From the NCBI RefSeq assembly GCF_003790525.1, contig NZ_CP033635.1: 64,000 bases of DNA; one strand, written 5' to 3'. The translations under genes and the position numbers were made by a program. Positions within the stretch are counted from its first letter, which is position 1. Each line of letters starts with the position of its first letter. Source of the DNA: Escherichia coli. Lineage in GTDB: Bacteria; Pseudomonadota; Gammaproteobacteria; Enterobacterales; Enterobacteriaceae. This document shows, one piece after another, positions 507-21,332 of this stretch. The notes beneath the pieces were generated by a model. The model ran no database searches, was not told where the DNA came from, and saw only the letters and a list, made by a program, of their open reading frames with translations.

Positions 507-3011
507 ATGTCACAAACTATCGACCTGACCCTGGACGGCCTGTCCTGCGGTCACTGCGTTAAACGCGTGAAAGAAAGTCTCGAACAGCGCCCGGATGTTG
601 AGCAGGCGGATGTGTCTGTCACTGAAGCGCACGTTACCGGGACTGCCAGTGCAGAACAGCTGATCGAAACCATCAAACAAGCGGGTTATGACGCATCTGT
701 AAGCCACCCAAAGGCTAAACCGCTGGCGGAGTCATCAATCCCGTCGGAAGCACTGACAGCGGTTTCTGAGGCGCTTCCGGCAGCGACCGCCGATGACGAT
801 GACAGCCAGCAGTTGCTGCTGAGCGGCATGAGCTGCGCCAGCTGTGTCACCCGCGTACAAAATGCGCTGCAAAGCGTACCGGGCGTCACTCAGGCACGGG
901 TAAACCTGGCGGAGCGTACTGCGCTGGTGATGGGCAGTGCCTCCCCACAAGATTTAGTGCAGGCGGTGGAAAAAGCGGGCTACGGTGCGGAAGCGATTGA
1001 AGATGACGCGAAACGCCGTGAGCGCCAGCAAGAAACCGCCGTCGCTACGATGAAGCGCTTCCGCTGGCAGGCGATTGTCGCACTGGCGGTGGGTATCCCG
1101 GTGATGGTCTGGGGGATGATCGGCGATAACATGATGGTCACCGCCGACAACCGCAGCCTGTGGTTGGTTATCGGCCTGATAACCCTGGCGGTAATGTTTT
1201 TCGCCGGCGGGCATTTTTACCGCAGCGCATGGAAAAGCCTGCTGAACGGTGCAGCGACGATGGATACGCTGGTGGCGCTGGGTACTGGCGTGGCGTGGCT
1301 CTATTCGATGAGCGTCAACCTGTGGCCGCAGTGGTTCCCGATGGAAGCGCGACATCTTTACTATGAAGCCAGTGCGATGATTATCGGTCTGATCAATCTC
1401 GGCCATATGCTGGAAGCGCGCGCACGTCAGCGTTCTTCTAAGGCGCTGGAGAAATTACTCGATTTAACCCCACCGACGGCGCGCCTGGTCACCGACGAAG
1501 GTGAAAAAAACGTGCCGCTGGCAGATGTTCAGCCAGGTATGTTACTGCGCCTGACGACCGGCGACCGTGTGCCGGTAGATGGTGAGATTACTCAAGGCGA
1601 AGCGTGGCTGGATGAAGCGATGCTGACGGGCGAACCTATCCCGCAGCAAAAAGGCGAAGGCGATAGCGTCCATGCCGGGACAGTGGTACAGGACGGCAGT
1701 GTGCTGTTTCGTGCCAGTGCGGTCGGCAGCCATACTACGCTGTCACGGATCATTCGCATGGTGCGCCAGGCCCAGAGCAGCAAGCCTGAAATCGGCCAAC
1801 TGGCGGATAAAATCTCAGCCGTATTTGTGCCGGTAGTAGTGGTTATTGCGCTTGTCAGTGCGGCAATCTGGTATTTCTTTGGTCCGGCACCGCAGATTGT
1901 CTATACCCTGGTGATTGCCACCACGGTGCTGATTATTGCCTGTCCGTGTGCGCTGGGACTGGCGACGCCGATGTCGATTATTTCGGGCGTCGGGCGGGCG
2001 GCTGAGTTTGGCGTGCTGGTACGGGACGCCGACGCGCTGCAACGCGCCAGTACGCTCGATACCGTAGTGTTCGATAAAACCGGGACGCTGACCGAAGGTA
2101 AACCGCAGGTTGTCGCAGTGAAAACGTTTGCTGATGTTGATGAAGCGCAGGCATTGCGTCTGGCGGCGGCACTGGAGCAAGGTTCCAGCCATCCGCTGGC
2201 ACGAGCGATCCTCGATAAAGCAGGCGATATGCAGCTGCCGCAGGTCAACGGTTTCCGCACATTGCGCGGGCTGGGCGTGAGCGGTGAAGCTGAAGGTCAT
2301 GCGTTATTGCTGGGCAATCAGGCGCTGTTAAATGAGCAACAGGTTGATACCAAAGCTATCGAAGCGGAGATTACTGCTCAGGCATCGCAAGGGGCAACGC
2401 CTGTGCTGCTGGCGGTTGACGGGAAAGCGGTAGCCCTGCTGGCTGTACGCGATCCATTGCGTAGTGATAGCGTGGCGGCGCTGCAACGCCTGCATAAAGC
2501 GGGATATCGTCTGGTGATGTTGACCGGGGATAACCCAACCACCGCCAATGCGATCGCCAAAGAAGCCGGGATTGATGAGGTGATCGCCGGGGTGCTGCCG
2601 GACGGTAAAGCCGAAGCGATTAAACGCCTGCAAAGTGAAGGACGTCAGGTGGCAATGGTGGGCGACGGCATTAACGACGCGCCAGCGCTGGCTCAGGCGG
2701 ATGTCGGTATTGCGATGGGTGGCGGCAGTGATGTTGCCATTGAAACCGCGGCGATTACCCTGATGCGCCATAGCCTGATGGGTGTTGCGGATGCGCTCGC
2801 GATTTCCCGCGCAACGCTGCGCAATATGAAGCAGAACCTGCTCGGTGCGTTTATCTACAACAGCATTGGTATTCCGGTCGCCGCCGGTATTTTGTGGCCG
2901 TTCACCGGTACGCTGCTTAACCCGGTGGTTGCCGGAGCGGCAATGGCGCTCTCGTCGATTACCGTAGTGAGTAACGCCAACCGGTTGCTGCGGTTTAAAC
3001 CGAAGGAATAA
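507..3011 (+). CDS. copA: Cu(I)-translocating P1B-type ATPase CopA (834 aa)
   Basis: ORF track 834 aa; two N-terminal heavy-metal-binding motifs ([16 protein letters not shown]), membrane CPC motif, DKTGT phosphorylation site, GDGINDAP hinge; AAAGGAG SD upstream. Confidence 0.97.
707..718 (+). other. copA: Programmed -1 ribosomal frameshift site inside copA (slippery heptamer C CCA AAG, then GGC TAA in the -1 frame), giving the 70-aa CopA(Z) metallochaperone
   Basis: Heptamer at 707-713 is in the X XXY YYZ register for the copA frame (codons 68-69 Pro-Lys); the -1 frame stops two codons later at 716-718, directly after the first HMA domain. Confidence 0.6.
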
Positions 3012-3059
3012 GTATGTCATTGCGGATGCGCTGCTTTAGGGTGGCGCATCTGGCATCGA

Positions 3060-3195
3060 CGCATGCCTGCCGGATGCGGCATAAACGCCTTATCCGGCCT
3101 ACGATTCAGGCACAGGGTTGTAGGCCTGATAAGACGCGTAAGCGTCGCATCAGGCAATGGTGCTCGGATGCCGGATGCCGGATGCGGCGATGTTT
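3060..3195. repeat. REP/BIME cluster (at least two inverted REP units plus a partial unit with a duplicated CCGGATG)
   Basis: GCCTGCCGGATGCGGC...CGCCTTATCCGGCCTAC and TAGGCCTGATAAGACGCG...CGTCGCATCAGGCA palindromic units typical of E. coli REP, in the copA-ybaP intergenic region. Confidence 0.8.
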
Positions 3196-3314
3196 TGGCA
3201 TTACGCGACCTTTTTGCACGTTTTCCCCGGCGTGCCAAATATTTAATCCGTCCCAACTCCATTTGCGCCATCCCTCACCGCGCGCTAGCATGATATTTCA
3301 CAAAGGGAGGTCGT

Positions 3315-4109
3315 ATGGATCTGTTGTACCGGGTAAAAACGCTTTGGGCCGCGCTGCGCGGTAATCATTACACCTGGCCTGCTATCGATATCTCTCTTCC
3401 CGGCAATCGCCATTTTCATCTGATCGGCAGTATTCATATGGGTAGCCACGATATGGCTCCCCTGCCCACCCGTTTGCTCAAAAAGCTCAAAAACGCCGAT
3501 GCGCTGATCGTCGAGGCGGATGTTTCCACCAGCGATACGCCTTTTGCTAATTTGCCTGCCTGCGAGGCGCTGGAAGAGCGCATTAGCGAGGAGCAACTCC
3601 AAAACCTGCAGCACATTAGCCAGGAGATGGGCATTTCTACCTCACTCTTTTCTACCCAACCGCTGTGGCAAATCGCGATGGTTCTTCAGGCGACGCAGGC
3701 ACAAAAACTGGGGCTCCGGGCAGAATATGGTATCGATTACCAGCTATTGCAGGCGGCGAAGCAACAACATAAACCCGTGATTGAACTGGAAGGGGCAGAA
3801 AACCAGATTGCCATGTTGCTCCAGCTCCCTGACAAAGGACTGGCACTGCTGGACGATACGCTGACCCACTGGCACACCAATGCACGGTTGCTGCAACAAA
3901 TGATGAGCTGGTGGCTGAATGCACCGCCGCAAAATAATGAAATAACGCTGCCCAATACGTTCAGTCAGTCGCTGTACGATGTGCTGATGCATCAGCGAAA
4001 TCTCGCCTGGCGGGATAAATTACGCGCCATGCCGCCGGGGCGATATGTGGTCGCGGTCGGTGCACTACACCTGTATGGAGAAGGGAATTTGCCGCAAATG
4101 TTGCGCTAA
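3315..4109 (+). CDS. ybaP: TraB/GumN-family protein YbaP (264 aa)
   Basis: ORF track 264 aa with GGAGG SD upstream; sequence recognised as E. coli YbaP. Confidence 0.85.
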   Translation: MDLLYRVKTLWAALRGNHYTWPAIDISLPGNRHFHLIGSIHMGSHDMAPLPTRLLKKLKNADALIVEADVSTSDTPFANLPACEALEERISEEQLQNLQHISQEMGISTSLFSTQPLWQIAMVLQATQAQKLGLRAEYGIDYQLLQAAKQQHKPVIELEGAENQIAMLLQLPDKGLALLDDTLTHWHTNARLLQQMMSWWLNAPPQNNEITLPNTFSQSLYDVLMHQRNLAWRDKLRAMPPGRYVVAVGALHLYGEGNLPQMLR

Positions 4110-4191
4110 AAAAATGGCCAATATCGCTATTGGCCCGTCAAAGAGGAATTTCATTTTTTTATTATTATGCCGTCACTTTAAGCGACGGTGT
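4108..4191 (-). ncRNA. chiX: ChiX (MicM/SroB/RybC) small regulatory RNA, 84 nt
   Basis: Reverse complement reads ACACCGTCGCTTAAAGTGACGGCATAATAATAAAAAAATGAAATTCCTCTTTGACGGGCCAATAGCGATATTGGCCATTTTTTT, i.e. the ChiX sequence with its GC hairpin and 7-U tail; convergent with ybaP. Confidence 0.85.
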
Positions 4192-9840: not shown

Positions 9841-9950
9841 TTGCCGGATAATAGGCGCGGATATGTAGGCCTGATAAGACGCGCCAGCGTCGCATCAGGC
9901 ATTGAGAGCAAAATGCCAGATGCGGCGTGAACGCCTTATCTGGCCTACGA
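9841..9950. repeat. REP/BIME cluster between convergent ybaL and gsk
   Basis: GTAGGCCTGATAAGACGCGCCAGCGTCGCATCAGGC and GCCAGATGCGGCGTGAACGCCTTATCTGGCCTAC REP units. Confidence 0.8.
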
Positions 9951-21229: not shown

Positions 21230-21332
21230 CTGCCTGATGCGCTACGCTTATCAGGCCTACACCGCTCCTGCAATATATTGAATTCTTGCGGTTTCGTAGG
21301 CCGGATAAGGCGGTCACGCCGCATCCGGCATG
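21230..21332. repeat. REP/BIME cluster between convergent ybaM and mscK
   Basis: TGCCTGATGCGCTACGCTTATCAGGCCTAC and GTAGGCCGGATAAGGCGGTCACGCCGCATCCGGCA REP units. Confidence 0.8.

Follow-up and report, generated by a model that had tools for sequence, protein, structure and literature searches.

In K-12-type Escherichia coli, ybaQ lies between copA and ybaP and encodes an XRE-type regulator of about 113 amino acids; in the 64-kb stretch of E. coli DNA analyzed here (hereafter, the window), the same two genes are separated by 303 bp, from the copA stop (3011) to the ybaP start (3315). An earlier note on this DNA attributed the difference to non-acquisition or loss of ybaQ, the latter possibly mediated by the REP palindromes that occupy part of the interval. 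The question, then, is whether ybaQ was ever present at this locus and, if so, how it disappeared and whether the REPs played any part. Here, we conclude with high confidence that the interval is a deletion scar at a polymorphic higB-1/ybaQ toxin-antitoxin (TA) locus, where ybaQ was lost without involvement of the REPs, and that the scar arose once and has probably spread by recombination.

Anatomy of the copA-ybaP interval

The window is 100% identical to the chromosome of E. coli SMS-3-5 (NC_010498.1) across the region compared (2800-3600), and the RefSeq gene order in that record is copA, ybaP, ybaK, ushA, with no gene between copA and ybaP. AML001_par, the ybaQ of which is 100% identical to that of an MG1655 record, was used as the K-12-type comparator; its copA-ybaP interval spans 794 bp and contains ybaQ on the opposite strand, convergent with copA and divergent from ybaP. 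The order ybaP-ybaQ-copA that the earlier note gave for K-12 is correct in K-12-type genomes, and its report that ybaQ is missing here is borne out by both the ORFs and the RefSeq annotation of NC_010498.1. Alignment of the window with the K-12-type allele and with MRY15-131 resolved the interval and its borders into the following features.

507..3011, plus strand: copA, an 834-aa ORF for the copper-exporting P-type ATPase (RefSeq copA in NC_010498.1); left flank
3024..3051, no strand assigned: hairpin with a 12-bp stem just past the copA stop codon, detected by RNA folding, with no T-run after the stem
3069..3102, minus strand: REP unit 1, with inverted repeat I6 (3069-3080/3087-3098) and the GTAG head GTAGGCCGGATAAG at 3089-3102 (-)
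3120..3155, plus strand: REP unit 2, with inverted repeats I1 and I4 (I4 at 3124-3137/3142-3155) and the GTAG head GTAGGCCTGATAAG at 3120-3133 (+)
3165..3189, no strand assigned: third REP, decayed to (CGGATGC)3 plus GGCG, with its 3' half deleted (32 bp compared with WL297) and its 5' stem expanded, as delineated by alignment of SMS-type alleles
3190..3200, no strand assigned: spacer leading from the REP array to the ybaQ stop codon, common to K-12-type alleles (alignment)
3201..3256, minus strand: ybaQ pseudogene remnant of 56 bp, comprising the stop codon and about 18 C-terminal codons
3253..3260, no strand assigned: deletion junction, with the break at 3256/3257, where GTCCCAA on the ybaQ side meets CTCC of the ybaP upstream region
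3257..3314, plus strand: ybaP upstream region, 58 bp, near-identical in all alleles examined, with the ribosome-binding site AAGGGAGG at 3303-3310
3315..4109, plus strand: ybaP, an ORF of the TraB/GumN family (Pfam TraB_PrgY_gumN, E 1e-43; RefSeq annotation); right flank

The 56-bp remnant opens on the complement of the ybaQ stop codon, which is as far from the common spacer as it is in K-12. Nucleotides 1-44 of ybaQ, counted from the stop codon, align to 3201-3243 with 88.6% identity (blastn against the 64-kb window, E 2.5e-5 to 8e-8), the exact 12-mer AATCCGTCCCAA at 3245-3256 matches ybaQ at 12 of 12 positions, and residues 89-111 of YbaQ align to 3265-3209 in a tblastn search. Compared with the corresponding 69 bp of K-12, the remnant lacks 1 bp at one site and 12 bp, in frame, at another, and carries five substitutions; these five substitutions and two indels could have accumulated by decay after the deletion or could reflect an origin in a divergent lineage. 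The syntenic homology to ybaQ at the nucleotide level thus amounts to a pseudogene fragment, which annotation pipelines could flag as such. Nothing of the helix-turn-helix part is left: an intact HTH_3 (XRE-type) antitoxin ORF of about 113 aa is absent from the interval, and a Pfam search of the interval ORFs gave no match and no helix-turn-helix domain, compared with an HTH_3 match at E 3e-11 for K-12 YbaQ. The earlier description of the interval ORFs as REP-derived frames devoid of helix-turn-helix character holds with respect to the missing domain but not with respect to origin, given that about 20 first codons of the 84-aa minus-strand ORF (3271..3017) come from ybaQ and not from a REP. 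Similarly, REP palindromes are indeed present, but they do not make up the whole interval, as had been stated: REP-derived sequence is confined to about 3069-3189, or some 120 of the 303 bp.

The two recognizable REP units, which we tentatively read as Y-type (unit 1) and Z2-type (unit 2) on the basis of consensus sequences rather than a curated model, are homologous to the first and second REP of the K-12 array, respectively. They are arranged head-to-head across a 17-nt linker and so form a BIME; the GTAG heads (GTAGGCCKGATAAG) are at 3089-3102 (-) and 3120-3133 (+), the inverted repeats I6 and I4 are 83-86% complementary, and the region folds with z = -6.2. Chance alone would put 0.01 GTAG REP heads in the 64-kb window; six were found, grouped as pairs near 3.1, 9.9 and 21.3 kb. 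The 3.1-kb pair is extragenic and is bordered by the 3' ends of copA and of the former ybaQ. The other two inverted pairs, also BIMEs, span 9865-9948 and 21247-21309. At the copA-ybaP locus, the REP copy number varies between strains from 0 to 5; in the K-12 array, the REP pair is amplified in tandem to five units and resembles BIME-2. Within the decayed third REP, the heptamer (CGGATGC)n (3165-3185) is present in three copies in SMS-3-5, four in CE10, five in Z0117EC0005 and two each in K-12 and WL297, and behaves as a small variable-number repeat that differs among otherwise identical alleles.

On the copA side of the array, the 3024-3051 hairpin sequence is kept in K-12, RM8385, MRY15-131, E2348/69 and TC_EC10 and, overall, in all allele types but one, in alleles with or without REPs and with or without ybaQ. 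It likely serves as a 3'-end stem-loop for the convergent copA and ybaQ transcripts. Beyond the right border, the sroB (ChiX/MicM) sRNA gene is intact between ybaP and ybaK (4108-4191, minus strand; Rfam RF00368, 82 bits), untouched by the deletion.

The deletion junction and competing explanations

Compared with K-12/RM8385-type alleles, 352 bp are missing from the interval, namely, ybaQ codons 1 to about 91 along with the promoter/operator of the gene (the main text of the preprint by Gao et al. gives no binding motif for YbaQ). The deletion has one endpoint at a GTCCCAA within ybaQ and the other at a GTCC(C)CAA that precedes the ybaP start by 58 bp and reads GTCTCCAA in K-12 and GTCCCCAA in RM8385 and E2348/69. 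The direct repeat at the endpoints, identical in 7 of 8 nt, is short and imperfect, a configuration that fits deletion by replication slippage or by microhomology-mediated illegitimate recombination. The ancestral allele would have been K-12-like, with the copA 3' hairpin, a REP/BIME array, ybaQ converging on copA and the ybaQ promoter facing ybaP. A single 352-bp deletion between the short direct repeats would then have taken ybaQ codons 1 to about 91 and the promoter/operator, leaving the 3' stump, which either decayed later or came from a diverged allele, and sparing the ribosome-binding site and the proximal upstream region of ybaP. Under this scenario, the REP array pre-existed and subsequently went through changes of its own, with truncation of the third REP and expansion of the heptamer.

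The REPs invite a different account, in which either REP units recombined and removed ybaQ or the gene had never arrived, with the REP/BIME cluster filling its place. REPs do lie in the interval, and the arrays at this locus demonstrably rearrange, as witnessed by the range of copy numbers, the truncated third REP and the varying heptamer. The ybaQ 3' remnant, however, sits in place, at the syntenic position, so the gene was lost rather than never acquired, and the non-acquisition considered in the earlier note is excluded. REP-mediated loss, the other suggestion, finds no support either and is rejected because K-12 has the same array next to an intact ybaQ and because 67 bp separate the junction (3256/3257) from the nearest REP-derived base. 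Neither endpoint, one in ybaQ and the other upstream of ybaP, is a REP, although REP units flanking ybaQ were what the earlier note proposed to look for at the junction. Moreover, the array, with the same borders, accompanies intact ybaQ in both K-12 (five units) and RM8385 (one unit), MRY15-131 and E2348/69 carry ybaQ without any REP, and TC_EC10 has lost ybaQ in an allele that has no REP. We therefore consider an origin of the gap through REPs, or through failure to acquire ybaQ, very unlikely.

The extent of the deletion can also be parsed differently, as a single event of about 420 bp at ATT microhomologies that brought ybaQ '...CCAAATATT' up against the upstream '...ACATT|AAACAAGTCCCCAACTCC' and was followed by several substitutions, in which case 3244-3256 would derive from the ybaQ promoter region. 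A permissive blastn search indeed extends the match to the K-12 upstream region back to 3241 (93% over 75 nt, with one gap). Against this parse, the 12 nt at 3245-3256 are exact in ybaQ, their assignment to the upstream region costs about four substitutions and one indel in 18 nt, and the minus-strand ORF holds the YbaQ frame over the 12-bp gap (GRI-KYLARR compared with GRIETVAEYLARR). The longer deletion is less parsimonious than the 352-bp one, and we regard it as improbable. As for the SMS-3-5 record being an artefact of assembly or sequencing, faulty records of this locus do exist, such as the homopolymer noise in the toxin gene of HS-02, but the junction is common to 44 independent complete genomes, 29 of which match at 100% over 125 bp, so that the chance of an artefact is negligible.

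Alleles of the locus and probable spread of the scar

A 352-bp deletion at this site could coexist with a copy of the module elsewhere. In the 64-kb window, blastn detected no higB-1/ybaQ-like DNA outside the locus, and a tblastn search with YbaQ, which the earlier note recommended for the whole source genome and which was run here on the same window, returned the residues 89-111 at the remnant and nothing else credible. No similarity to the HigB-1 toxin (PF05015) gene was found anywhere in the window or, at blastn sensitivity, in the SMS-3-5 chromosome. The chromosome was covered by a DNA query that combined the TA operon with mscK, which matched two places, the same number as mscK alone; in the ybaQ-positive control ST648, the count rose from two with mscK alone to three with the combined query. 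At the DNA level, to which this search was confined, a second higB-1/ybaQ copy is absent from the SMS-3-5 chromosome. When E. coli plasmids were searched in the same manner, addition of the higB-1/ybaQ operon to the mscK query lifted the number of matching places from 5 to 98, and the number of records with a best match of 60-80% identity from 6 to 96. Diverged relatives of the module are probably plasmid-borne.

The frequency of the different alleles was surveyed in 5,426 complete E. coli genomes, with presence defined as at least 80% coverage and absence as no match at all.

ybaQ present: 4,831 genomes (89%)
ybaQ absent: 592 genomes (10.9%)
Toxin gene upstream of ybaQ: 1,266 genomes (23%); 100 aa, Pfam HigB-like_toxin, E 2.7e-32 for the MRY15-131 copy
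SMS-3-5-type junction in one piece: 44 genomes, including CE10, found with a 125-bp junction-spanning query
MLI121-type replacement allele: 347 genomes
TC_EC10-type scar: at most 188 genomes, an upper bound from which E2348/69-like genomes are not separated, as the search joins two 30-bp pieces across ybaQ

The characterization of ybaQ as an orphan antitoxin-like regulator in the earlier note is accurate for K-12 but not for the species, given the 1,266 genomes in which a HigB-like toxin gene precedes ybaQ. The TC_EC10 type has a 171-bp, REP-less interval in which a stump of 22 bp from ybaQ runs directly into the orphan-type promoter region; in the MLI121 type, the interval consists of 428 bp of unrelated sequence, including a dispersed repeat of about 270 bp. 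Both types are independent of the SMS-3-5 type, so that ybaQ has been lost in E. coli through at least three independent alleles.

The repeat in the MLI121-type allele (1747-2017 of the extracted MLI121 locus) is also found in a K-12-like genome, where aqpZ and lysO flank it (1501-1771 of the extracted locus); it is unannotated and present in 2-8 copies per genome at about 94% identity. A search of the MLI121-type replacement sequence against Rfam yielded no match for this repeat and only sroB/chiX downstream of ybaP. HS-02 was rejected for comparison, as homopolymer noise fills its toxin region: in NZ_CP172818.1 (2100-2400 of the extracted locus), long runs of T, G and A, a sequencing or assembly artefact, give rise to a spurious 'hypothetical protein' and a lengthened ybaQ.

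The history of the SMS-3-5-type scar was examined in six sampled carriers. SMS-3-5, CE10, Z0117EC0005, WL297, 2013C-4282 and RMDEC465 have an identical junction and the same remnant indels, which implies that the deletion happened once. The third, degenerate REP is still there in WL297, 2013C-4282 and RMDEC465, and is cut by 32 bp in SMS-3-5, CE10 and Z0117EC0005. Between SMS-3-5 and Z0117EC0005, the interval differs by one substitution and a repeat-number indel, compared with 95 differences in 1500 positions of the copA flank and 40 in 1400 on the ybaP side. Such near-identity of the interval between flanks that differ by 3-6% indicates that the scar allele, now present in at least two such backgrounds, has probably moved between them by short-patch homologous recombination. 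The flanks of SMS-3-5 and CE10 are almost identical to those of MRY15-131, which has the full TA module and no REP (21 differences in 1500 positions and 2 in 1400), and the similarity of SMS-3-5 to MRY15-131 breaks at approximately the copA stop codon.

Over the last 1,500 bp of copA, SMS-3-5 and MRY15-131 differ by 21 mismatches, and a single 100-bp bin (about 2312-2411) accounts for 12 of them, which suggests a small mosaic or recombination patch. In WL297, a DUF6896-domain gene (3330-3370 of the extracted locus) is located downstream of ybaK where other genomes have ushA, and both flanks, copA and ybaP, differ by 4-6.5% from those of every other allele sampled; this genome may represent an outlying lineage.

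In the lineage of SMS-3-5 and CE10, which we take to belong to phylogroup F, the scar most probably replaced an intact higB-1/ybaQ module rather than forming in place, a direction of transfer that we hold with moderate confidence, drawn as it is from about ten sampled genomes. The opposite course, deletion in place in this lineage followed by export to the Z0117EC0005, WL297 and RMDEC465 backgrounds, has an appreciable, if minor, chance of being correct. It accounts equally for a near-identical interval across divergent flanks, which shows transfer but not its direction. It is harder to reconcile with flanks that match the REP-less, full-TA MRY15-131 around a scar that has a K-12-like REP array, with the match breaking near the copA stop, and with the greater allele diversity in the divergent group, where the older three-REP forms (WL297, RMDEC465) and a derived form (Z0117EC0005) are both found.

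Consequences and relation to known systems

The copA-ybaP locus of SMS-3-5 encodes no YbaQ regulator and no HigB-1 toxin, and copA and ybaP are now co-directional neighbours with only the hairpin and the REPs between them. A terminator scan of 2950-3400 yielded one weak terminator-like site, not above the number expected by chance, and did not call the 3024-3051 hairpin; a promoter scan of the same region found none at the scan threshold, and together the scans favour no particular regulatory assignment. A possible weak sigma-70 promoter before ybaP, below that threshold, consists of TTGCGC (3263-3268), a 17-nt spacer and TAGCAT (3286-3291). With no convincing intrinsic terminator or promoter called, read-through from copA to ybaP is possible, so that transcription from the copper-induced copA might extend into ybaP and affect its expression.

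The scar can also be viewed, tentatively and with considerable doubt on our part, as a natural cure of a chromosomal addiction module, that is, a TA-less patch of about 300 bp that was made once in a divergent lineage and repeatedly imported, for example, by SMS-3-5/CE10, displacing an active higB-1/ybaQ module with an essential ybaQ. If true, this would mean that the module is selected against or that cells tolerate losing it abruptly, with copper-inducible read-through from copA to ybaP as a side effect. Beyond annotation and population genetics, the significance of the locus is small: this is a real deletion with a recognizable stump, and the additions are the three or more independent losses of ybaQ, the occurrence of one scar allele across divergent flanks, which neatly illustrates how a toxin-antitoxin cassette is removed through short-patch recombination, and a pseudogene fragment to annotate.

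The presence/absence polymorphism of higB-1/ybaQ has already been published, and the SMS-3-5 case is ordinary strain variation, as the earlier note had it and as the 592 of 5,426 complete genomes without ybaQ attest. Rousset et al. (bioRxiv 10.1101/2020.05.25.114553) reported that ybaQ is essential in B2 and F strains with higB-1 upstream, that YbaQ represses higB-1, that most phylogroups are without higB-1 and that phylogroup D has lost the two genes; the MLI121-type allele may correspond to this last loss. The HigB-HigA type II TA system that they described occupies the same copA-ybaP site, with lineages that have both genes, the antitoxin only (most, including K-12) or neither. The window differs in having only the 56-bp ybaQ 3' stump and no toxin gene; whereas Rousset et al. 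report presence of the module in B2 and F, the scar allele of SMS-3-5 and CE10 is a distinct one, of which we found no description. K-12 YbaQ is listed as a solitary antitoxin in RASTA-Bacteria (PMC2374986), and the K-12-type allele from which the scar descended, with a REP array next to ybaQ and no higB-1, was of the same kind, but SMS-3-5 is without even the orphan antitoxin. The REP units conform to the REP/BIME elements of E. coli in being GTAG-headed imperfect palindromes of about 35 nt that are extragenic between 3' ends, paired in inverted orientation across a short linker and variable in copy number between strains; the third unit differs in having degenerated into a variable-number 7-bp repeat, and the array is otherwise unexceptional.
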